A DNA stretch of 64,000 nt from Paraspadella gotoi (Eukaryota; Animalia; Chaetognatha), in assembly GCA_051294375.1 (NCBI GenBank), contig CM119263.1, positions 14,680,421-14,744,420 of the forward strand. The letters are read 5' to 3'. Position numbers and translations under genes: made by a program. Below, piece by piece: positions 5,253 to 60,647 of this stretch; within the stretch, counting starts at the first letter, position 1; every line of letters begins with the position of its first letter. The notes under the pieces are model-generated. The model was not told the origin of the DNA. It searched no databases and saw only the letters and a list, made by a program, of their open reading frames with translations.

Positions 5253-6003
5253 GATAGGCGATTGGTGGGTCCGGAGAAGAGCGGGAGTTTAACCTGGAGG
5301 TCTCTCTATACAAGCTTTCTCAGTGTAGGCGATTGGTGGGTCTGGAGAAGAGCGGGAGTTTAACCAGTTTAACCTCTATACAAGCTTTCTCAGTGTAGGC
5401 GATTGGTGGGTTCGGAGAAGAGCGGGAGTTTAACCTGGATGTCTCTCTATACAAGCTTTCTCAGTGTAGGCAATTGGTAGGTCTGGAGAAGAGCGGGAGT
5501 TTAACCTGAAGGTCTCTCTATACAAGATTTCTCAGTGTAGGCGATTGGTGGGTCCGTAGAAGAGTAGGAGTTTAACCTGGAGGTCTCTCTATACAAGCTT
5601 TCTCAGTGTAGGCGATTGGTGGTCCGGAGAAGAGCGGGAGTTTAACCTGGAGGTCTCTCTATACAAGCTTTCTCAGTGTAGGCGATTGGTGGGTCCGGAG
5701 AAGAGCGGGAGTTTAACCTGGAGGTCTCTCTATACAAGCTTTCTCAGTGTAGGCGATGTGGGTCCGGAGAGAGAGGCGGGAGTTTAACGCTGGAGGTCTC
5801 TCTATACAAGCTTTCTCAGTGTAGGCGATTGGTGGGTCCGGAGAAGAGCGGGAGTTTAACCTGGGAGGTCTCTCTATACAAGCTTTCTCAGTGTAGGCGA
5901 TTGGTGGGTCCGGAGAAGAGCGGGAGTTTAACCTGGAGGTCTCTCTATACAAGCTTTCTCAGTGAGGCGATTGGTGGGTCCGGAGAAAGAGCGGGAGTTT
6001 AAC
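5253..6003. repeat. 71-bp minisatellite (about 10 units, runs into an N gap)
   Basis: CAGTGTAGG recurs at about 5321, 5391, 5462, 5533 and onward, a period of 70-71 bp. Confidence 0.95.
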
Positions 6004-9000
6004 CAAAAACACTGNNNNNNNNNNNNNNNNNNNNNNNNNNNNNNNNNNNNNNNNNNNNNNNNNNNNNNNNNNNNNNNNNNNNNNNNNNNNNNNNNNNNNN
6101 NNNNNNNNNNNNNNNNNNNNNNNNNNNNNNNNNNNNNNNNNNNNNNNNNNNNNNNNNNNNNNNNNNNNNNNNNNNNNNNNNNNNNNNNNNNNNNNNNNNN
6201 NNNNNNNNNNNNNNNNNNNNNNNNNNNNNNNNNNNNNNNNNNNNNNNNNNNNNNNNNNNNNNNNNNNNNNNNNNNNNNNNNNNNNNNNNNNNNNNNNNNN
6301 NNNNNNNNNNNNNNNNNNNNNNNNNNNNNNNNNNNNNNNNNNNNNNNNNNNNNNNNNNNNNNNNNNNNNNNNNNNNNNNNNNNNNNNNNNNNNNNNNNNN
6401 NNNNNNNNNNNNNNNNNNNNNNNNNNNNNNNNNNNNNNNNNNNNNNNNNNNNNNNNNNCCGCGGCGGCGCTGGCGGCGGTGCTGGCGGCACTCGTCATCG
6501 GATCAACTCGAATGACTGATCGCCATCGGGATTCACCCGCGCTCTCGTCTCTCCCGGGGAGGGAGGGTCGAAAGGGACAGGATAAAGAGAAGAGGGGGGA
6601 AAGAATATAGGGAAAGGAAATAAGGAAAAGAGAAGAAAGAAAGGCGGGTGAGATTCTAAGAAAATAGGAATACATGATTGCTAAAAGAGGATTTGATGGG
6701 AACCTTTCTGACATGAAAGTAAATGTAGAAAATGTGAGTAGAATAATAGAAAGAAATAAGATGAAAAGAATTGAAAATGTTGTAAAAGAAAATAAAAGAA
6801 AGAAAGAAATAAATAAATAATAAATAAATAATTAAATAAATAAATAAAAAAAGAGACAATATATAAAATATATAAAAATGAGACATGAGAAAAGTTTTTA
6901 TTGAAAATAAATGAAAATAGTAGTAGGAAAATACATAAATGATAATAGAAAAAAGTAAAAAAAGAGAAAATTGTGGAACGAAAGGAAAGGAGAAGGGACT
7001 TTGCAATCAAACCCCCTCTCTCTCATTTCCCAGCGAGAATCAACATTCCGTGAAACTCTCACGCTCTTCGCTCGTTTAATGAATCGCCGACGCAAAAGGC
7101 GAAGCGTCGCGACGAAAGGCGAAAACAGAGAAGACGTGAAAATTTTATGACGACGAAAACGAAAAGTTTAAAAATGGCGCCGGGTNNNNNNNNNNNNNNN
7201 NNNNNNNNNNNNNNNNNNNNNNNNNNNNNNNNNNNNNNNNNNNNNNNNNNNNNNNNNNNNNNNNNNNNNNNNNNNNNNNNNNNNNNNNNNNNNNNNNNNN
7301 NNNNNNNNNNNNNNNNNNNNNNNNNNNNNNNNNNNNNNNNNNNNNNNNNNNNNNNNNNNNNNNNNNNNNNNNNNNNNNNNNNNNNNNNNNNNNNNNNNNN
7401 NNNNNNNNNNNNNNNNNNNNNNNNNNNNNNNNNNNNNNNNNNNNNNNNNNNNNNNNNNNNNNNNNNNNNNNNNNNNNNNNNNNNNNNNNNNNNNNNNNNN
7501 NNNNNNNNNNNNNNNNNNNNNNNNNNNNNNNNNNNNNNNNNNNNNNNNNNNNNNNNNNNNNNNNNNNNNNNNNNNNNNNNNNNNNNNNNNNNNNNNNNNN
7601 NNNNNNNNNNNNNNNNNNNNNNNNNNNNNNNNNNNNNNNNNNNNNNNNNNNNNNNNNNNNNNNNNNNNNNNNNNNNNNNNNNNNNNNNNNNNNNNNNNNN
7701 NNNNNNNNNNNNNNNNNNNNNNNNNNNNNNNNNNNNNNNNNNNNNNNNNNNNNNNNNNNNNNNNNNNNNNNNNNNNNNNNNNNNNNNNNNNNNNNNNNNN
7801 NNNNNNNNNNNNNNNNNNNNNNNNNNNNNNNNNNNNNNNNNNNNNNNNNNNNNNNNNNNNNNNNNNNNNNNNNNNNNNNTCGCCATTAAAGGATAGAGAG
7901 AGGGAGAATCTGGAAAGAGAGGGAGAGAGAGACAATATGGGCGTTGCCTTCGTCCTTGGCTTCGTATTCTCGAATATGTGGAGACGCGAAGTAAACAAGG
8001 CAAACATTCGCTCGTGACGATCGGTCGTCAAGGAGCGAAAGAGAGAGAGAGAAAGTGAAAGAGAGACAGAGACAGAGACAGAGAAGGAGAAAAAAGCCGA
8101 TGGTGGTAGGCGGAATGGATTGGCTGTCTGAAAGGCGCTTGTGGTCAGAGGGTGAAGTCGAATGGCGATGATGGTGAAGATTGGCAAAGGGGCGTTTCCC
8201 TGGGTCGCCTCAAAGAACAATAGGCGATAAAGTCGTTGTGGATGGATCGGAGCTGAGACGAGGAAGAAAAGGCGGTTGGTACGGCTATAAATGGCAAAGC
8301 ATTTGTTGGGCTTCGCGCACGAAATATTCGTTGGGTTTTAATACTTTCAAATACGTGTTGGTTGAAATTGCGAGTCAAGAGTCAACAAAACGAAAGAATT
8401 AAAACAGAGTCCTAAGAAAAATTTTTAGACAATATTAAGCTTTTTGTCTGTCTGTCTGTCGTCCGATCATTGAGCATTACATTTTACGAAACGAACAACT
8501 TTTCAATCTTCATATAAATTTTTTCCTTTAGCAAGGATGAATTCCGCCCCCCCGAAAAGACGGGGAGATCCGACCTTCCGAAAATGTTGTGGATAATGTG
8601 AGAAAAACCTCGATTCTATATTCGGGTTCTCGTCGCCTCCGAAACAAGAATCAATCTTGAAAAAGACGTTTTACTCGCTCCGCGGGCGATAGATGGCGCG
8701 GAGGGTATGAAAGAAAAGAGGGGTTCGGGGAGGCGGAGCACGGGGCGTGGCGGAGACGGAATAACAAAGAAGAAAATATCGGGGAATTTCGAAGCGCGAC
8801 GAAAACGACATCGTTTCTCCGTTTATATTCGCGTTCGAACCTCCCTTCCCATTCTCCGATTCTCCGCTTCTCCTTTTAATTCCTCAAACGCGTTTTTCCG
8901 TCTTTTGTTTCGTTCAGGCGGCAGAGGGAGCGGAAGTGTGAGAAGTTGGGGGGATGGGTGAGAGAGATGGGTCGAATGGTCTGCAGCAGCTTTGGTGTAC

Positions 9001-16074: not shown

Positions 16075-16333
16075 TTTCGTGTCTCTTCATATCTTGGAGT
16101 AAACACTGAAGAGACAGTAATTTTATTTATGGTTAGTGCGGAAGAGAATTCCGTTTCAAAAATTATTGAAAAGCAGTTCCCTTTTGAGTCTAATCGGATC
16201 AGGCTGTAAACACCTGCTAGGCAGATCCACGCGGGGTGAACCCCCAGACCTTTGGGTTGGGAGGCGAATCGACTTGCCTCCGGCACCAATGGTCGCAATG
16301 AGTCGGTGTGGCTAGGATTTTTTAGTCGCACAT
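16075..16333 (-). mobile_element. tRNA-derived SINE-like element, family A, internally deleted copy
   Basis: The reverse complement shares CCATTGGTGCCGGAGGCAAGTC..TTCGCCTCCCAACCCAAAGGTC, GCCTAGCAG, TTACAGCCTGATCCGA and TTACTGTCTCTTCA with 25811-26044. The ribozyme cleavage-site segment is missing. Confidence 0.75.
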
Positions 16334-19300
16334 CTAACCAACCCAATTGGTATAGAGTTGATCAATTAAAAATATCTACTTTGGTATCTTCCCTGGACTT
16401 TTTAGATTTCAAATTGCTTTACCTTATATAAGTTCTTATGCAATGAAACATTCCAGTAAATCAATCAATGAGACTCATTCATCTAGCCCTTCCCTCCAGG
16501 CAAATACAAATTTAGGGAGCACACTCGGGATCACCAATTCTTTTTGTTGCGTTTGTAGTCGGGCATCTAGCCTGGTTTCACGCTCAGCCTATAAGCCATG
16601 AGATTTCAATATAAACAGTCCTGCACCCCGTGGCTCATTGAGTAAGTGCAATTCATGCTTTCAATCCGACCACTAGTTACCAAAAATTGAAAATCCTTAC
16701 AAAACCGACAGAATTAAGCACATTTGCAGTGACGCCACGAAATTTATGGCAAAAATTTGAGAGGGGCTAATTGGACATTTAAGGCGTAGAAATTTCAAAA
16801 TTTTACTTTAATTAAAAGATTTAAACGTGAGAACGAACATATTACTAACTATGGGTATCACAATCCTGACCACACGGTACTTTAATTGTTAATTTTAATT
16901 AATTAATTTTATTAATTAACTTGTTTTTTTCTCTAATTTATTTTTTTTTACCTTAGACATTATCTAATCTTTGTTTGTTTGTTTTTGATGATATGTACTG
17001 ATCACATACCGACTGCGGGAAGCGTGAGGACGGCCGTAAAGCTGCTTTGGCGGCAATGGCAAACACTGCAAGCCCAGGGACCGTCCATGGCTGCTAGAGG
17101 GGTTATAGAAGTTACGTGACAGTCCATCTTCAGCCCATGTAGGCTCTTATCCACTAGTCTTAAACCTAAAAAATATTTTAAACATTTTGAGGTTAAACCC
17201 ATCTGTCATATGTCAAATATATATTTCCATCTCTCTTTGCTTCTATTCGGCTTTCTTTCTCGTGGCGTTCAAGTATCAACAGAGTTGTGGTACCTCTTTC
17301 TAGACTATTTCAGTGCATGAAAATTTAATAGGAACCCAAGTAAGCAATGAACATTTCGTATTACCATCAGAAAAATGGACAGCAAGAACAGATATTCTCA
17401 CCTCAAGATACAGATCTGTCACTAATTTAATTTACATTTTGCCTTCTGTTTTTGATATTGATTGAATTATCACAAATTATTAATTTATTTTTTTATTTGT
17501 CAAATACTCTATATATATAATGATATAACATAATCTCCATTTAGTTATTAAAAAAACATTTTTGGGAAAAAAACTTTCAAAATACTGGTATGCAAGCATA
17601 TTGATTAAAAGAGAACCAAAATTTTTTTCAAAACTATAAAAAACACGGTAAATCCAAAATAGTAAAATATAAAAAATAAAATCCAATTGCGGATCCCAGA
17701 TTTACTTTTCCTAAAATTTCGTTTGTTTCCAAATTTTATCGTTTTTTGGCACTTTTTTTTCATGGGCAGCTTCTCAAAAAATGTTCTGAGAGTGGATCCT
17801 TGTCACGAAAGCTCATTGCCGAAATTTTAAGAAAATTTTAAAAATTTGCATTCAGAAGAAATCCTCTCCTGAGGTAAAGTAAAAGACCAAAAACTCAAGT
17901 TAATGCATTCAACCCGTCATTCCATATACTTAGCATGACATTTGCGAGTATCCATTTTGCAATCAGTTTTGTTTTCATAGGAAAATAAAACCTTTAACAA
18001 GATTGAATATTTTTTTTCTAAATTTTAATTGACTTAAATTCACAAACGATTTGTAGAATAGGAGAAAAAAGCATACTACCAATTGTAGATCCAATGATTA
18101 AAATTATCTAATACCAAGTCTTACAAGCCTAATCTTTATTGTTGAGAAGAGACGACCTTTTTTGAAAATTTTCACCTTTAGAAGGCTATATCTCAAAAAG
18201 TTGATATCTAGAAAAATTTTGGATTGGTGCATCTTGTACCCCGGAAGAATGGAATCAATGACCATCGGGACGAACATTCTTTTCTTTTTAAATTTTTTTT
18301 TCAAGATCCCATGAACAGACTCACCGTTAAATTAACGTGTTTCATATGCTAATGAGATTAAATTATTCCTCTTTAATAAAAAATTTAGGAAAGTGGATAG
18401 AGAAATGTAGGTTGAAGAAATGAGAAAGGGGAAAATCGGGGAAGAGAAAAGTGGGAGAAGAGATACAGTCAAAAAAGAACAGGTGTCAAAAGTTAACTTT
18501 TATTACTCTAAATATAATATATAATATATATAATATTATATAGTATTTCCCGCATCTAATACTTAAGGGAGTGTCTTTTCATACATTGATACACAATTCT
18601 TTGAAACATTATACCACTTCACTTGATAAGGAAGCCAGGTACTCTGGAGTGAATAAACGAGACTGGAGAGAGTCTTGAATTGAAAGCTTGCAGGGACTTT
18701 GCTATGTCATAACATCTGTAAGAGTGATGGAGGCCTTAAACCACAGAAACCTGTCCAAAGTCATGGGCAAAATAGCTTATTTATTAAATGAATGGATAAT
18801 TTTTATATCGTTGTACCAATTTCATATAAATCACCAAGAAATTCAACTTCCGCTCTTACCTTAATTTTTAATACCAAAAAGAAAAATGAGGGCGATTGAA
18901 CTCTTTGCTTTTTGAATATTTGATCAAAGCAAGCAAAAATAGACTGGTTTTAAATCTTTGAAAAGGAATCAAGTGACTAAACGAGAAAGCGTGTGTCACT
19001 TTTTTTGTGCACTTAGGGGGCGGCAGGTGTTCGTGCGGTGGCGGGCGGTGGCAGCGAGCGGTAGAGGCGGTGGCGGCGGAAGTCGGCGAGGTGGCGACCC
19101 CAGAACAATCCATCATGCAAAGGGCCCACATAGTTTGCCAATCTTTTAATTCGTAAGTTTAGGTTGTTGCGGGTTTCTCAACACCCCAAGTTGTTCCAGG
19201 TTCATCCAAGCGATCGACCCGACTCGTAGCAGAAGGAGTCTCTTCCCTTCTTATTTTTATTTTTTTTTTAATACTTTGCGCTTAAATATTAAATAATTAC

Positions 19301-19390
19301 GTACTATTGAACTCAGCCTACGTCTTTTTCATTTCGTCGTATATTGTGTTATTATATTGGGGAACCCCACACCTTCTTTCCTCGCCTTAC

Positions 19391-19651
19391 ATCGGCGTAA
19401 AGTAGGAACGCTCGTTAGCCGAATGCCTTTCCGTAGAACATGTAGCACCCGTTGTAGATCTTGTCGTTTTGATACTGCTTGGGGATGGCGTGTTTGAGGA
19501 AGCAGATCTCCAGATTCCCGTGTTGGTCACCGTGTTCCCGGAGAGCTCCCGTCGCTGGATTCCAGTAAGGCGAGGCCATGGCCAAGCAGGCGCTGAAGAT
19601 GGCAATGACGAGACGACGGCGATGGCGACGCCCAATGGTTGTCGTCGTCTT
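19391..19651 (-). pseudogene. Inverted, frameshifted copy of claudin-1 coding exon 1 (probably an artefact)
   Basis: Same sequence as 25184-25451 split across frames (AVKTTT.., VIAIFSACLAMASPYW, QRRELSGNTVTNTGIW, EICFLKHAIPKQYQNDKIYNGCYMFYGKAF, ANERSYFTP). No downstream exons on this strand. Confidence 0.6.
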
Positions 19652-20667
19652 GACCGCATGTCGTCGGGAATTGAATGGGATGAGATAGCGGAGACCGGAT
19701 CGAGGTCGTGGCAACGATGCAGCTTTTTCGCCAGGTGCGAGTTGGCGTCGTGAATGTCGCCGCGAGACACGACACACTCCCGAGACGTACGAGCGAGAGT
19801 GAAGAGACGGAATGAAAAGAGCGAGAGGAATTCGCTCGGGATGGAATCTTCGTGGAACCAAGTTTGGATTACGAGGCAGACAAATCGGGGAAGAAGCGAT
19901 CGCGTGTCTAAAAATACCTTTTTATTTTTTTATGGAGTACAGTTGAATGAAAAACTGGATTCTCTTCTCTCGATATCCAGAAGTTGCCAGGAGGTGACTC
20001 ACCTTCTTTTCCGTTGTCGTTGCCGCAGCGGACTGACACTTACCTGCGACAGCAGCAATCTCTCGCAGTCGCAGCGGCTGTCGGCTTTTGCAGCAGCTCC
20101 TTGGGTGAGGCCAATGTGTTGAAACAGGTAGTTGACGGATTAAGAGAGAGAGGAAGAACGAAACAAAAGATCTTTGCGATGATGATATTGCATTAAAGTT
20201 TAGCGGTTTAAAGAACAGGTATTTTTCATATTCATTTAATTCCACTAGGTTAGAATAATTGACTAATTCTTTCAAAAAATCATATTCATTTCAGCTTCAA
20301 TTGATCCCTCAAAGACGAAAAAAAATTACGTCGTTTACTATCCATTGTACAATATACATCATTACATGAACCATGATTAAAAAAAAAACAATTTAAAGAA
20401 TCATTTATTCATAAAGTCATTATTGTTATCAATTTATTATTTCAGCCAGGTAATAATAGATAGAAAGAACTATGTATTGACATGGATAAAGAAAATGGAG
20501 AGAGAGAGAGAGATAGAGAGAGACAGAGAAGAGAAAAGAATTAGAGAGACAGATAAATAAAGAAAAAAATCTGTATAATTTTTTTTTTAAAAATCCATAT
20601 ACTACAATCCAGAAAATGACAAATACTCGGGAACACTCCCTCCCAACCAACAGCGGTCCAGCGTCCA

Positions 20668-20863
20668 TCACTTCTTGGGCTTCTTCCCGTCGGATTTTTT
20701 GGTTTGATACTGCGCCTGCGTCCCAGTACCGGCGGCCCCGGATGTGCTGCCCATGTCTCGCTTCACTATGCCCTTCATCACTTTGTGGCGCAACTCGCCG
20801 GAAGTGAGGGGACGTGCGAAGTCGTCCAGTTGCTCCGCTTCCTCGTCCGAGGCGTATTCGTCC
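20668..20863 (-). CDS. Inverted duplicate of the CCDC63/ODAD1-like terminal exon
   Basis: Reverse complement of 23984-24179 with the same TTTGCAG acceptor and TGA stop; part of the inverted duplication. Confidence 0.4.
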
Positions 20864-21023
20864 CTGCAAAGGGAAAGGGGGGAGCGGGAGATGGCAGAAA
20901 AGAGGGTGGAATAAGAAGGAGTCGATAGGGGGGAAGGCCGAAGAACGGGTACAGATGGGGATAAGGAATACGAAGGATAAATAAAAGTTTTTTCCCAGCG
21001 ACAGTTCGGAAAATTATAGCTGC

Positions 21024-23716: not shown

Positions 23717-23983
23717 AGCTATAATTTTCCGAAACTGCTCGCTGGGAAAAAACTTTTTTATAAGTCCTATCCATATCTCTTATCGATTAATCTGTCCGTT
23801 CTCGGGCCTTCCCCCGGCTATCCGACTCCTTCTAATTCCACCNNNNNNNNNNNNNNNNNNNNNNNNNNNNNNNNNNNNNNNNNNNNNNNNNNNNNNNNNN
23901 NNNNNNNNNNNNNNNNNNNNNNNNNNNNNNNNNNNNNNNNCCTCTTTTCTGCCATCTCCCGCTCCCCCCTTTCCCCTTTGCAG

Positions 23984-24179
23984 GGACGAATACGCCTCGG
24001 ACGAGGAAGCGGAGCAACTGGACGACTTCGCACGTCCCCTCACTTCCGGCGAGTTGCGCCACAAAGTGATGAAGGGCATAGTGAAGCGAGACATGGGCAG
24101 CACATCCGGGGCCGCCGGTACTGGGACGCAGGCGCAGTATCAAACCAAAAAATCCGACGGGAAGAAGCCCAAGAAGTGA
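23984..24179 (+). CDS. Terminal coding exon, CCDC63/ODAD1 (outer dynein arm docking complex DC2)-like
   Basis: Pyrimidine tract plus TTTGCAG acceptor, phase 2. Reads DEYASDEEAEQLDDFARPLTSGELRHKVMKGIVKRDMGSTSGAAGTGTQAQYQTKKSDGKKPKK*. The acidic stretch plus RPLTxxEL++K+MKG matches my recollection of DC2-family C-termini. AATAAA at about 24437. Confidence 0.6.
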
Positions 24180-24719
24180 TGGACGCTGGACCGCTGTTGG
24201 TTGGGAGGGAGTGTTCCCGAGTATTTGTCATTTTCTGGATTGTAGTATATGGATTTTTAAAAAAAAATTATACAGATTTTTTTCTTTATTTATCTGTCTC
24301 TCTAATTCTTTCTCTCTCTCTGTCTCTCTCTATCTCTCTCTCTCTCTCCATTTTCTTTATCCATGTCAATACTATAGTTCTTTCTATCTATTAATTACCT
24401 GGCTGAAATAATAATTGATAACAATATGACTTTATGAATAAATGATTCATTTAAATTGTTTTTTTTTAATCATGGTTCATGTAATGATGTATATTGTATA
24501 ATGGATAGTTAACGACGTAATTTTTTTTTCGTCTTTGAGGGATCAATTGAAGCTGAAATGAAAATATGGTTTTTGAAAGAATTAGTCAGTTATTCTAAAC
24601 CTAGTGGAATTAAATTAATATGAAAAATACCTGTTCTTTAAATCCGCTAAACTTTTAATGCAATATCATCATCGCAAAGATCTTTTGTTCGTTCTCCTCT
24701 CTCTCTTAATCCGTCAACT

Positions 24720-24803
24720 ACCTGTTTCAACACATTGGCCTCACCCAAGGAGCTGCTGCAAACCCGACAGCCGCTGCGACTGCGGAGATCGCTGCTGTCG
24801 CAG
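24720..24803 (+). other. Candidate 5' non-coding exon of claudin 1
   Basis: GC-richer stretch ending in a consensus donor CAG|GTAAGT (24804), with an alternative AAG|GTGAGT at 24844, about 380 bp upstream of the ATG. The start is approximate. Confidence 0.35.
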
Positions 24804-25183
24804 GTAAGTGTCAGTCCGCTGCGCAACGACAACGGAAAAGAAGGTGAGTCACCTCCTGGCAACTTCTGGATATCGAGAGAAGAGAATCCAGTTTTTCATT
24901 CAACTGTACTCCATAAAAAAATAAAAAGGTATTTTTAGACACGCGATCGCATTCTTCCCCGATTTTCTGCCTCGTAATCCAAACTTGGTTCCACGAAGAT
25001 TCCATCCCGAGCGAATTCCTCTCGCTCTTTTCATTCCGTCTTCTTCTACGCTCGCGTACGTCTCGGGAGTGTGTCGTGTCTCGCGGCGACATTCACGACG
25101 CCACTCGCACCTGGCGAAAAAGCTCATCGTTGCCCGACCTCGATCCGGTCTCCCGCTACTCATCCCATTCAATTCCCGACGAC

Positions 25184-25451
25184 ATGGCGGTCAAGACGAC
25201 GACAACCATGGGCGTCGCCATCGCCGTCGTCGTCGTCATTGCCATCTTCAGCGCCTGCTTGGCCATGGCCTCGCCCTACTGGATCCAGCGACGGGAGCTC
25301 TCCGGGAACACGGTGACCAACACGGGAATCTGGGAGATCTGCTTCCTCAAACACGCCATCCCCAAGCAGTATCAAAACGACAAGATCTACAACGGGTGCT
25401 ACATGTTCTACGGAAAGGCATTCGCTAACGAGCGTTCCTACTTTACGCCGT
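25184..25451 (+). CDS. Invertebrate claudin 1 (PMP22/claudin family), coding exon 1: TM1 and ECL1
   Basis: MAVKTTTTMGVAIAVVVVIAIFSACLAMASPYWIQRRELSGNTVTNTGIWEICFLKHAIPKQYQNDKIYNGCYMFYGKAFANERSYFTP carries the W-GIW-C-C claudin signature. Phase-1 donor GTAAGG at 25452. Confidence 0.9.
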
Positions 25452-25590
25452 GTAAGGGCGAGGGAAAGAGAGTGGGTGGATAATACGGTTGGATTAATGG
25501 AGTCATTCTCCCAATCTATATTTACATAGAATTAAACGAAAGTTTGATGTCACAACTTAAATAAACAACCCCCTCTCGCTCTCTGGACAG

Positions 25591-25810: not shown

Positions 25811-26044
25811 TATGGTGGACTAAAATCCACCAACCGTTCATCAGTGGCCATTGGTGCCGGAGGCAAGTCATTCGCCTCCCAACCCAAAGGTCCAAGGTTC
25901 TAACCCGGTGGCCGCCTAGCAGTTAAGAGGGATGGGGCTCTTAACCCACCTTTAACATGGTGTTACAGCCTGATCCGAAGCTCAGGGACTGCTTATATTG
26001 AACTGTTCTGTCACTAACTCTTAACATTAATTACTGTCTCTTCA
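25811..26044 (+). mobile_element. tRNA-derived SINE-like element, family A, in claudin-1 intron 2
   Basis: A-box-like TGGCCATTGG at 25845-25854 and B-box-like GGTTCTAACCC at 25896-25906. Homologous to 58174-58367 and 16075-16333. Confidence 0.8.
25918..25993 (+). ncRNA. Twister ribozyme type P5, decayed copy
   Basis: AGCAGUU..GAGG GA UGG ggcucu UAA CCC AC..CCUGA UCCGAAGC UCAGG GACUGCU. The T2 dinucleotide is AC instead of GC and P3 has a mismatch. Confidence 0.55.
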
Positions 26045-40807: not shown

Positions 40808-41017
40808 AAAAAGATGTTTTATGGCCACCATGTGTGAGGCATCTCCTGACAGCTGGCGCTCAGGGCTTTGGACCTGCAGTGACCACCCCATGTCACTGGC
40901 GTGTTTATGCCAAGACCATCACACTTAACCAGCGTGACCGTGAGAGGATTGAACACGGAACTCACGGTTGTTTAAGCCAATGAGACGAGCTAAGTATCAC
41001 CAAGCTATACGGGAGGC
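40808..41017 (-). mobile_element. tRNA-derived SINE-like / Pol III unit, family B, antisense in claudin-1 intron 4
   Basis: Minus strand: A-box-like TAGCTTGGTG (41007-40998), B box GTTCAATCC (40954-40946), the ribozyme, then T5/T6 runs at 40812-40801. Only one copy in this window. Confidence 0.6.
40852..40933 (-). ncRNA. Twister self-cleaving ribozyme, type P5
   Basis: 5'-GCUGGU uaa GUGU GA UGG ucuuggca UAA ACAC GC CAGUGAC auggggug GUCACUG CAGG UCCAAAGC CCUG agc GCCAGC-3'. P5, P2, P3, P4, loop U-NNN-AAGC, T1 (CCA/UGG), T2 (GC/GC), the conserved GA and the U^AA site are all present. Confidence 0.85.
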
Positions 41018-41269
41018 TAATTTAGGATTCGCCACAGTTTCTTCAATCAGTGACTACAATTTTTTGTCTTTTTTTTTTTTGTGATTAAACTTTCTTAAAA
41101 ATCCAAGGAAAATTCCCATTGTGATAAAAGGGCAGCGACCGAAGACTTAGAATTTGAGTCGTGATTTTCCATTCGCCTTTGCCCACTCGTTAAATCTATT
41201 CATTTTTCTAATTTTCTTTTCTCCCCTCCCCCTCGCTCCTCCCTCCCTCCTTCCGCTCCAACTCTGCAG

Positions 41270-56305: not shown

Positions 56306-58173
56306 AGAGGGAGAATAGAAGGACCCGAAAGACAGACAAAGAAAAAGGGAGGGAGAAAGAGACCGAAGTGTAAAAGAAATCGGGAAAATTGAAAATTTGT
56401 TGGGAAAAAGACTACGGAATTGGAAAACGTATAAAAACTCGTTGCTTTGAATTATGGAACAATTTTTTTTTATTTTGCGGGTCCTCTTTCTTCCGCCGCC
56501 GCCGCCGCCGCCGCCGTCGTCGTCGTCGTCGTTTTTAAACTCAATCGGAGAGATTAAATTCGAAACTTCGACTTCATCGTTTTGTGAAAATAAAAAAAAA
56601 GGAGAGACGCCCTTCGCCTTCACGCACGACTTCCTTCTCCTGAGCCCGTGTACTTTCAGTTAGTTTTTCTGCACCCATAACTTAACTTGGGATTTGCCAA
56701 CGCCCTTACCACACGCACAGCTTTTAAGTTCACTTTAATGACTTTTTGATTAAAGCCTTGGGCTTGGGTTTTATATTTCCTAAACAAATGACTTAACGTT
56801 CACTTTTTCTATTAGTTTCTCTTCAATGAAAAAAACTTTTTATATTTTTATTCTTGACTTCACAATTTTAAAACAATTGAATTTTTTCTTTTATCGACAA
56901 AAAGTCATGACAGTCTTGGCATAATTTTCTCACAAGTTCACCCACGAGTTCACAACGAGTTCTCGCACGACTCATACTTTACACAACTACGCGCGCACTT
57001 TGCGCTCTCTTTCCTCAACCCCCCCATCCCTCCGCCGAGGACAACGCCATCTTCCTTATCTCTCAAGGGAATTCCTTCGTCATCGTCGCCTGATCGTTTC
57101 ACCGAATTCTCTCTACGCCGTCACGTGATCGAAGAAATACGGAATTCACGTGACGACCGCGTGATCGGAGTCTAACGACGTTCTCGGATTTTTTTTTGGG
57201 ACGCGAAACGAAGTGGGATTCTTCGAAAATGTCGGTCAAAATTGTCTCCTCGACCGACGACGATCACGTGACCCAGTTTTCTCGATCGGAAATGGACGGC
57301 GCGAAGATCGTTTGATCGATCCAATCCCCGTTCGTCCCATCTCTATAGAAAATTAAAACTAATGATGATTTGAAGTGAGATTTAAAGCAGAAAGAATAAG
57401 GTGNNNNNNNNNNTCTATAGAAAATTAAAACTAATGATGATTTGAAGCGAGATTTAAAGCAGAAAGAATAAGGTGACTTTTATACGAAGGACAATCGTCG
57501 AGTTGTCTAGCCATAGATGGAAGAGAGAAAAATACGCGTGCGAGGTCGTAATCTTATCGAACGTCATAATTTTTTCAAGCGTCGATGTTGTAAAGTTCAC
57601 CTATGGTTGCGATGAGACGGTCTCATCGTCGTAAAATGGATGAGTCAGTGAGTTGAGTAATGAGTATGGAATTACTGAGGGATAAACATTGGCGAGTTAA
57701 GTTTTGAATCATGAGCGTTACAAATAACCACCACTAGCTAGTAACTAAGCAATTCGCAATTACGCCTGGATTATTTAAGTTCTTAAAGTTACTAATAAAG
57801 TTAGTAAAGTTGCTGTTCTGTTACGGGAAGAAACCCGAGTGAGGAGTGGCTCAGCTCGCACGCGCGTGGCACGTGACGAGGAGACTCGACGCGGCGAGAT
57901 TGCGTGACAGGTGAGGGGAAATGGAAGAAGGAAGGGATTTTCCTGGATTTAGTCGGATCATTCGCGGTTATAAATGACTGTCAAAATGAGTTTCGTGACG
58001 CACGCCGTGGAAAAAAAAAAGGGGCGGAAATGGCGCGCGAGGGGCGAAAGAACAAAGACGGCGAAAGGGATTAAATGAGCTAGGAAAAATAAGACGAGAT
58101 TGGCGCCAAATAATAATTTAAAACGAGAAAGGGAAATGGCGTAGAGGATTGGATTGGCGCAAAAGAATACTGC

Positions 58174-58367
58174 TATGGTGGACTAAAATCTACCAACCGT
58201 TCATCACCAAAGGTCCGGGGTTCTAGCCCGGTGGCCGCCTAGCAGTTAAGAGGGACGGGGCGCTTAACCCGCCTGTAACATGGTGTTACAGCCTGATCCG
58301 AAGCTCAGGGACTGCTTATATTGAACGGTTCTGTCATTAACACCTAACAATTATCACTGTCTCCTCA
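58174..58367 (+). mobile_element. SINE-like element, family A, with a deletion of about 40 bp removing the A box
   Basis: Aligns with 25811-26044 from TATGGTGGACTAAAATC to ACTGTCTC; keeps B-box-like GGTTCTAGCCC. Confidence 0.8.
58241..58316 (+). ncRNA. Twister ribozyme type P5, family A, best copy
   Basis: AGCAGUU aa GAGG GA CGG ggcgcu UAA CCC GC CUGUAACA ugg UGUUACAG CCUGA UCCGAAGC UCAGG GACUGCU. T1 CCG/CGG, T2 GC/GC, P3, P4 and P5 are intact; P2 is short (2-3 bp) and P1 is minimal. Confidence 0.7.
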
Positions 58368-59168
58368 CTGCAATGATAGTGATACTGATAGTCAAATACT
58401 AGGAAATTATTTATATCTAGTTTTATTGCTTACGTAAAAAAAAAAGTTTTTTAAAAAGTTGCGAAAGGCAAGAATAATAGTGCAGCTATTTAAAAATATA
58501 TATATTTTTAAATGTTTTTTATCTTGGCTTATTGCGGGGTTGTCTTTCTTATTTTTGATAGCTGGTTTCCTTATCTCGTGCTATCATAACGGTACTTAAA
58601 CCATTAAAAATTTAAACACCACATCACGCTATCAAATAACACATAACAGAATACATACATATTATTTACATAATAAAATCTTTTGTTTTCAAGTTCCAAA
58701 GTAAGTTTACCTCATCGACCACCTTTCATTGCGTACGTATCGTTGTAGCGACGATGAATCGGTCGATGTCGATGCAACCAACAGGTAAGTTGCTCCAGCT
58801 CCTCGGGTGAGAAATAAATGCCATTTATTTCTACGAGACAAGGAAGAGTGTCGAAAGGAAGAGGAAAAGCAGCGGCGGCCTTTTAAAAATTACCGACGAA
58901 CGACGACTCCGAGGACGACGATAATGTCGTCGTTCCAGCGTTCGGACGAGGCAACTGCTGCGTAACTTACCTGTCCAGCTTTTTAGCCGCCTCGCGGAGA
59001 AGGCAGAAGGTAAGGAAAAAAACCTGTTTTGAAAATCCAAACCCACTGCGACAGCGCGGTTTAATAACATGGCGGATCTGAATTCCACTGGAAATAAACC
59101 TAAATATTGAATTAACTTTTTTGATTAAATAAAATAATTCGTTTCGCTGAGAGGGAATATCGATAAAA

Positions 59169-60023: not shown

Positions 60024-60336
60024 TAGAGAGAGAGAGAGTGTGTGAGAGAGAGTGAGAGAGAAAGAGCGAGATAGAGAAAGAAACACAGGGAGAGAAGCAC
60101 AATATTTGTTCGTTTTAAATAAATTATACAAGTCTTTCGGCGATGGAAATCTGGTTAGGTTTCCGCCCTTTTTTCCGATGTCGATGCCGAAGCCGAGATC
60201 GAATTTCGTTATTCCGAATTTCGTTAAGGCCCCCCCCCCTTCGCCCCTCTCTAAAAAAAACGTTTCCTTCGACTAAACTTTCCCCCCTTTCTCCGATTCA
60301 CCCTTCACCCCTCCACCCGACTCCCTTCCGCCACAG

Positions 60337-60560
60337 TCCTCTCCACCTTCTTCTTCCTCCTCTCCTTCTCCACGAGCTCCTGGATCGAGGTGGACGACGA
60401 CTTCCGCGACAACCCCCTCTGCCAGCTCCTCAACATGGGCCTCTGGAGCTTCTGCTTCAAGAACTTCCGCTACCCCAACGCCTACTACGATCGGGTCTAC
60501 AACAAGTGCTACTGGATCTTCAGCCCGGAACTATGGGACCTTCAGGATTATTTATTGCCA

Positions 60561-60561
<1 letters not shown>
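60337..60561 (+). CDS. Claudin 2 (Megatrachea/Pickel- or Kune-like), exon 2: TM1 and ECL1
   Basis: CCACAG acceptor: (V)LSTFFFLLSFSTSSWIEVDDDFRDNPLCQLLNMGLWSFCFKNFRYPNAYYDRVYNKCYWIFSPELWDLQDYLLP. Has W-GLW-C-C and the YLLP motif of arthropod septate-junction claudins. Donor GTGAGA, phase 1. I found no later exons in the window. Confidence 0.9.

Positions 60562-60647
<86 letters not shown>

Follow-up and report, generated by a model that had tools for sequence, protein, structure and literature searches.

Two abundant families of short repeats in the window, the 64-kb stretch of DNA analysed here, are best read as solo LTRs of short non-coding TRIMs, in which the LTR would combine a tRNA-like, probably Pol III, promoter with a predicted twister-P5 ribozyme lying behind it. 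We place the probability of this combined reading at about 0.62; that families A and B are LTRs, taken by itself, is quite likely. The original prediction was right about two dissimilar high-copy families, each with a twister-P5 fold behind a tRNA-like part and with different stem sequences. Its assignment of these families to the SINEs is not supported: target-site duplications (TSDs) of a fixed 4 bp, ends that are LTR-like in part, the absence of a tail and the leader that precedes the tRNA-like part speak for solo LTRs.

Copies, ends and abundance of the two families

Family A is present in the window in three dispersed, related copies, as had been noted before, and family B in one. They are named below by position (58k, 25k, 16k and, for family B, 40.9k):

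58174..58367 (+), family A copy, likely a solo LTR, starting TA and ending CA, placed by contig loose ends at 58174 and 58367
between 58206 and 58207 (+), 40-base deletion in the head of the 58k copy, placed by contig loose ends at 58206/58207
58170..58173 (+), left TSD of the 58k copy, 4 bp, identical to 58368-58371, the longest flanking duplication being exactly 4
58368..58371 (+), right TSD of the 58k copy
58176..58195 (+), 5' leader hairpin upstream of the tRNA-like part, which would be U3, with a 7-bp stem in the predicted folds of the 58k and 25k copies
58322..58330 (+), nine-base strand complementary to 58195-58203, predicted from sequence and fold to close a long stem around the tRNA-like part and the ribozyme
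25811..26044 (+), family A copy with full head, exact 4-bp duplication 25807-10 / 26045-48, twister damaged in T2 and P3
about 16107..16340 (-), diverged family A relative, starting TG and ending CA, flanks matching at three of four bases, ribozyme core deleted
40820..41036 (-), family B copy, likely a solo LTR, TGTGGC...GCCATA, exact 4-bp duplication 41037-40 / 40816-19

The 58k and 25k copies are identical at 178 of 194 aligned bases, and the 40 bases missing from the former, which include the A box, are present in the family as seen in public run contigs. Exact 4-bp TSDs flank all three copies with a measured duplication: 58k and 25k, whose ends were set by contig loose ends independently of the duplication, and 40.9k, whose 5' end comes from contig loose ends and whose 3' end was set with the help of the inverted end and, in part, of the duplication. 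The fourth copy, 16k, whose 5' end was placed via the leader hairpin, agrees at three of four bases, and the chance of a 4-mer match between two sites 200 bases apart is 0.007 per pair. In family B the inverted end is short and imperfect; family A lacks terminal inverted repeats and begins with TA in place of TG, which counts against the LTR reading. The 3' end of family A is fixed in CA and is followed by AT-rich flanks in which contigs agree at only 0.41-0.46, so that there is no common tail. None of the 58k, 25k and 40.9k copies contains a run of four T.

Contigs, not reads, from 4 of 11 listed runs per family were placed on each family. Family A collected 9056, 2029, 755 and 1 contigs in four runs, in line with the high copy number suggested at the outset, and family B 1879, 1083, 170 and 1. 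In run X3, summed depth reaches 0.7 to 2.9 million across most of family A compared with about 80 in the flank, a ratio that gives an order of magnitude and is not a copy number. Taken with the presence of three copies within 60 kb, this depth suggests that family A numbers from thousands to about ten thousand copies. Its ends are sharp in the same run: among the loose-end positions listed, breaks fall at 58174/58173 in 73+18 contigs and at 58367/58368 in 93+25, with at least 418 weaker entries besides. In six of nine multi-contig rows for families A and B, the flank consensus beside the element end is ATAT, at low agreement and in a single organism, the other three rows differing and none of the three window TSDs being ATAT. 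In excerpts of the relevant paper, Gypsy elements are described as having 4-bp TSDs enriched for ATAT, and TG...TA ends are known among them (PMC10965091).

Run contigs contain no insertion or deletion in family A at 3% of depth or above and no depth step at its cut site. One head-to-tail joint for each family is found among the joints listed, the letters in between being unread in the contigs. Neither the 64-kb window nor the run contigs showed a two-LTR copy, a primer-binding site or a polypurine tract, and a 17-base match at 16605-16621 (E 0.15), inspected as a possible second LTR beside the 16k copy, is not an LTR.

A single low-depth contig of organism B (run X10) covers the final 61 bases of family A and stops at the 3' base where the family stops, and a single low-depth contig from a biofilm metagenome (X11) matches 72 bases of family B together with the continuation of that family. 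A metagenome scan with an 18-base motif returned 63 stretches, none of them related to family A beyond the motif, and neither the family A nor the family B motifs occur in viral contigs (0 and 0).

The window holds further repeated sequence. Claudin-like exons occur in several copies, at 24917-25483 (+), 19387-19929 (-) and 60277-60565 (+), with Pfam Claudin_2 at E 0.0013, below the cut-off, and a borderline top match to an arthropod-rich cluster at 0.90 in a protein atlas. Positions 19375-20905 and 23941-25469 form an inverted duplicate of 96.7% identity, a number of further long duplications could represent paralogs or redundancy in the assembly, and tandem arrays of a unit of about 71 bases occupy 16-790 and 5255-6004.

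The tRNA-like part and the predicted ribozyme

The head of family A is, judged from its sequence, a degenerate tRNA-like part, preserved to different extents in two copies:

25845..25916 (+), degenerate tRNA-like part of the 25k copy, A box at 25852 and B box at 25897, 45 apart, one mismatch each
58207..58239 (+), remnant tRNA-like part of the 58k copy, with variable loop, T arm including the B box (58219-58229, one mismatch) and acceptor-like 3' strand, A box deleted

Setting the 25k copy in register with a tRNA layout, we take 25876-82 to be a CU-CCC-AA loop and 25888-92 an AGGUC variable loop, with a closing acceptor-like stem. The tRNA head that had been predicted thus stands as a degenerate part with A and B boxes at 25k; at 58k the A box is deleted, ARAGORN reports no tRNA and Rfam no tRNA head. 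Loose A/B box pairs number 74 in the 64-kb window. In the 25k copy, the tRNA-like part starts 34 bases inside the element, behind the leader hairpin, and its A box lies 41 bases from the 5' end. The majority sequence of family B, taken from run contigs, has a perfect B box. None of the three family A copies in the window retains both promoter and ribozyme intact.

Behind the head of the 58k copy lies a twister-P5-type fold, made up as follows:

58241..58316 (+), twister-P5-type fold (predicted ribozyme), cut expected at 58265/58266
58241-47/58310-16 (+), P5, 7 of 7 pairs
58252-53/58268-69 (+), P2, two direct pairs, a third only with a bulged A
G58254 and A58255 (+), catalytic bases
58256-58/58298-300 (+), T1, 3 of 3 pairs
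58k copy (+), P1, at most one G-U pair
58271-72/58303-04 (+), T2, 2 of 2 pairs
58273-79/58285-91 (+), P3, 7 of 7 pairs
58292-96/58305-09 (+), P4, 5 of 5 pairs
40852..40933 (-), twister-P5-type fold of family B, 4-bp P2 (4 of 4 pairs), T1 CCA/UGG, cut expected at 40907/40906

P5, P3, P4, T1 and T2, among them the stems compared in the original prediction, are fully paired in the 58k copy, with UAA, GC, GA and AAGC in type-P5 twister order and the T1 and T2 pseudoknots able to pair. The shortness of P2 was likewise foreseen. The claim that these four motifs are unchanged holds for one of the three copies, as the 25k copy has a G>A change in T2 (AC for GC) and one P3 mismatch, and thereby fails the descriptor, and in the 16k copy everything from P2 to the cleavage site, the whole core, is missing. 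With a strict descriptor, two sites were found in the window, 58265 (+) and the family B site at 40907 (-), the shuffled control giving one match of any type in 30 block-shuffled windows. The U/AA cleavage site, the catalytic G and GA, and the L4 AAGC occur in P5 order only at 58k and 40.9k.

Compared with the Rfam twister-P5 model (RF02684), strand order, conserved bases and both pseudoknots are alike. The model has a long P1, no P3 and a 4-bp P2, whereas in family A P1 is nearly absent, P2 is short and P3 measures 7 bp. Family A receives no score, an Rfam search giving no twister call at 58k up to E 10. Family B reaches 25 bits (E 0.0026) with twister-P1, below the gathering score of 67.2, and its majority letters allow a P1 of 2 bp, which is interrupted by a mismatch in the window copy. 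Elsewhere, four repeated P1-type twister-like motifs on one metagenome contig (L003, L005, L006) share the P4 stem of family A, with a loop differing by one base, and one of these motifs has an Rfam twister-P1 E value of 0.00046.

In run contigs, the 5' strand of P2 has three bases throughout family A, with no indel at 3% of depth; a fourth base in the family A majority, considered as a candidate, is ruled out by the same lack of insertions. Five variable sites are listed in the 76-base ribozyme, two of them in the P3 loop and two with changes that keep G-U pairing. At 58300, a G>A change that breaks a T1 pair amounts to 11% of depth in X3 and 3-4% in X5 and X9, the change of its partner to only 3%. 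The catalytic and pseudoknot positions are all intact in the majority sequences of families A and B.

The differences between the stems of the two families had been taken as covariation within one selected class. Selection for the fold is apparent in each family, but no sequence homology between A and B is detectable; a comparison of two such sequences is no covariation test and does not demonstrate common descent. T1 as CCG/CGG in one and CCA/UGG in the other is also the expected outcome of CpG decay on both strands.

Competing structures bear on how well the ribozyme may work. The GUUAAG/CUUAAC hairpin proposed earlier can be drawn with six of six pairs and has a predicted probability of 0.0, and a different hairpin, between 58253-59 and 58268-73, is the predicted competitor; it would sequester T1, P2 and T2 of family A. 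In a folding model without pseudoknots, the predicted minimum at 58k is 7.7 kcal/mol more stable than the twister-compatible fold; the corresponding gap is 5.8 in family B and 1.9-4.1 in six distinct P5 twisters from phages. P2 of the 58k copy has a predicted probability of 0.0. The two ribozymes have folding z-scores of -1.9 and -1.1, which are unremarkable.

Short P2 stems occur among phage P5 twisters as well. The descriptor was passed by 8 of 304 fetched loci, four of which have a 3-base P2 strand, three of these four scoring above the Rfam twister-P5 cut-off; 13 further loci added one more distinct 3-base-P2 example. The phage twister-P5 motifs with a 3-bp P2 are L201, L214, L216 and L313, the first two on contigs that also carry twisters with a 4-bp P2 (L075, L094). 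The 3-base-P2 phage loci above the cut-off have three direct pairs and the locus with two pairs fails, while family A has two.

As far as the available text of a survey of natural twisters goes, about 94% are active, P1 is dispensable and flaws in P2 are tolerated, and the pseudoknots and catalytic bases are the sensitive parts (PMC11662667). These sensitive parts are intact at 58k, which counts for activity. On balance, the 58k ribozyme would probably cleave in vitro, and cleavage by the family B ribozyme is predicted with higher likelihood. The family A ribozyme is probably the slower of the two, slow cleavage being possible because of its short P2 and the predicted competing hairpin.

Class of the elements and a possible route of spread

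In the LTR reading, a full element would have two LTRs, with a primer site and then a polypurine tract between them. Transcription by Pol III would begin in the tRNA-like part of the left LTR and, there being no T-run, continue into the right one. A single twister cut in each LTR would release one unit RNA, the ends of which would be kept together by P5, P2 and T1 and probably ligated into a circle. A Gypsy-type reverse transcriptase and integrase, acting in trans, would copy and insert this unit and rebuild the leader upstream of the promoter. Solo LTRs would then arise by recombination between LTRs or by short copying of the circle. The P5 permutation suits such a route because the whole ribozyme lies in one LTR and the cut falls in the middle of it, so that the two halves at the ends of the released RNA could pair with each other. 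Furthermore, with cleavage in both LTRs, the leader upstream of the promoter would be inherited and copies would not be truncated at the cut.

The main alternative is a SINE of tRNA origin that has a twister in the body and relies on a LINE for its copying by target-primed reverse transcription. Its ribozyme would act slowly or be blocked, or would separate the monomers of tandem transcripts, as in the schistosome hammerhead SINE. The size of the repeats, their tRNA-like head, their dispersal as single copies with no internal region seen and the predicted competing hairpin would all suit a SINE, as would P3 of family A, which starts CUGUA like most of the Schistosoma twisters tabulated in a study that finds variant twisters at an RTE element's 5' end (PMC8501958). 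The ends of the repeats speak for a different origin. In the portion of the literature consulted, TSD length is fixed in LTR families and variable in LINEs, the SINE promoter begins 10-15 nt from the 5' end, and a short repeat is assigned to the solo LTRs if its TSD measures 4-6 bp and its ends are TGA/TCA or of the TGT...CA type (PMC8969392). In place of a poly(A) or short-repeat tail and a variable TSD, the repeats have a fixed end without a tail, in CA in family A, and a TSD of exactly 4 bp in all three measured copies, and the A box of family A, 41 bases in, lies beyond the 10-15 nt offset of a SINE promoter. The 34-base leader would not normally form part of a SINE transcript, and an active ribozyme behind a SINE head would cut off the promoter or truncate the 5' end, as excerpts of two papers indicate (PMC5786205; PMC6765202). 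We regard a SINE as improbable.

It is also unlikely that the repeats come from an ordinary Helenus-type TRIM as its solo LTRs, with a twister that is merely carried along or left over and that cleaves too slowly, or folds too badly, to matter; replication would then be by normal strand transfer through a repeated R region. The family-wide 3-base P2 strand of family A, its near lack of P1 and a competitor 7.7 kcal/mol lower would agree with this reading, and in published Helenus sequences motif searches turned up no twister and just two hammerheads. In one X3 contig, a joint lacking the ribozyme core (58244 to 58282) reaches a depth of 760, roughly ninefold that of a single copy; it is not among the joints listed for X5 and X9. 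The deletion of the 16k copy lies at nearly the same place, and the depth of the joint suggests that ribozyme-less copies may have spread. However, the catalytic and pseudoknot positions are kept in the majority of two unrelated families, and the common variants fall in a loop or preserve pairing. Additionally, the family B majority restores a 2-bp P1 over the mismatch of the window copy, and, as read by eye, a different class of ribozyme occupies the same position in wasp Helenus elements. A MITE (non-autonomous DNA transposon) with a 4-bp TSD that captured a tRNA-twister cassette is very improbable. Fixed ends, a fixed TSD length and the short imperfect inverted end of family B would also fit cut-and-paste movement, but family A has no terminal inverted repeat and a DNA element would have no reason to keep promoter and ribozyme in two separate families.

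Relation to known elements and significance

Solo LTRs with a tRNA-like promoter and a twister would be closest to two described systems, compared here by what parts of the published texts report. Helenus TRIMs (TRIMp3) have a tRNA part inside the LTR, 4-bp TSDs in animals, Gypsy-like primer sites and many solo LTRs (PMC10886601). They resemble families A and B, by description rather than sequence alignment, in the tRNA-like part within a short LTR, tens of bases from its start, in the 4-bp TSD, in LTRs some of which start TAT, and in a pyrimidine-rich end in CA; families A and B differ in the twister-P5 and in having no T-run after the tRNA part. The accessible text of the Helenus paper does not contain the word twister and mentions ribozymes only in citing retrozymes, and 12 short twister loop motifs searched in its supplement stood in no twister context among the places shown, although line breaks in the FASTA file can hide matches (PMC10886601). 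A hammerhead motif search of the same supplement gave eight places, two of which, in the LTRs of Helenus-2_SyJa and Helenus-2_SyUm, were read by eye as type III hammerheads (PMC10886601). Each would lie just 3' of the B box and comprise a helix I of 7 bp, then CUGAUGA, helix II, GAAA and helix III, loops 1 and 2 being complementary. The two elements, from wasps, have an internal part with a primer site and a purine tract, and their hammerheads pass unremarked in the text available (PMC10886601 DataS1). On this by-eye reading, the wasp elements would be an outside example of the layout proposed for families A and B.

Plant LTR retrozymes, in the sections of the paper at hand, carry a ribozyme in each LTR, have a 4-bp TSD and circular RNA, may give rise to solo LTRs from the circle, and show their ribozyme in a blocked predicted fold (PMC4918200). 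A ribozyme, predicted here inside a single putative LTR, the 4-bp TSD, the likely solo LTRs, the blocked predicted fold and the lack of coding sequence would be shared with families A and B. The plant elements have type III hammerheads in LTRs of 300-400 bp, with no tRNA-like part described in those sections, whereas families A and B are animal repeats of 217-234 bp with a twister-P5 and have no hammerhead core in their window copies.

Other small animal repeats with self-cleaving ribozymes are the metazoan non-LTR retrozymes and the schistosome hammerhead SINE, the latter with a tRNA part and Pol III (PMC7229834; PMC6765202). As excerpted, they differ from families A and B in being arranged in tandem, in having a hammerhead of type I and TSDs that exceed 4 bp, and in lacking LTR features. 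The twister variants of Perere-3, an RTE element, are likewise found in an animal retroelement, with a similar start of P3 and a reduced P1, and are of the P1 type at the 5' end of a coding LINE, in contrast to the P5 type in the middle of a non-coding unit in families A and B (PMC8501958, in part). In the papers covered, again in excerpt, twisters are reported in an RTE LINE (PMC8501958) and hammerheads in plant LTR and animal non-LTR retrozymes (PMC7761336; PMC7229834; PMC6765202). A literature search of openly accessible papers found no twister in a TRIM, solo LTR or SINE.

It is conceivable, if still somewhat against the odds, that these elements belong to an unrecognised class of animal LTR retrozymes, mobilised by Gypsy elements, with a Pol III promoter and an interchangeable ribozyme in the LTR and with a small circular RNA; a twister-P5 would fill the ribozyme position in the two abundant families described here, and a type III hammerhead in the two wasp Helenus elements. 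Among the papers cited, LTR-type retrozymes are described only in plants and only with hammerheads, and animal retrozymes lack LTR features.

A twister in a Pol III-driven LTR would unite the Helenus TRIMs with the LTR retrozymes, and the LTR reading would explain how the repeat spreads at full length despite an internal cut. Read as an LTR retrozyme, the element predicts an abundant small circular RNA. The finding also carries the warning that some repeats filed as SINEs may be solo LTRs. Most genomic twisters are without an assigned role; if such a class of animal LTR retrozymes is real, it would give a role to a share of the genomic twisters of animals.
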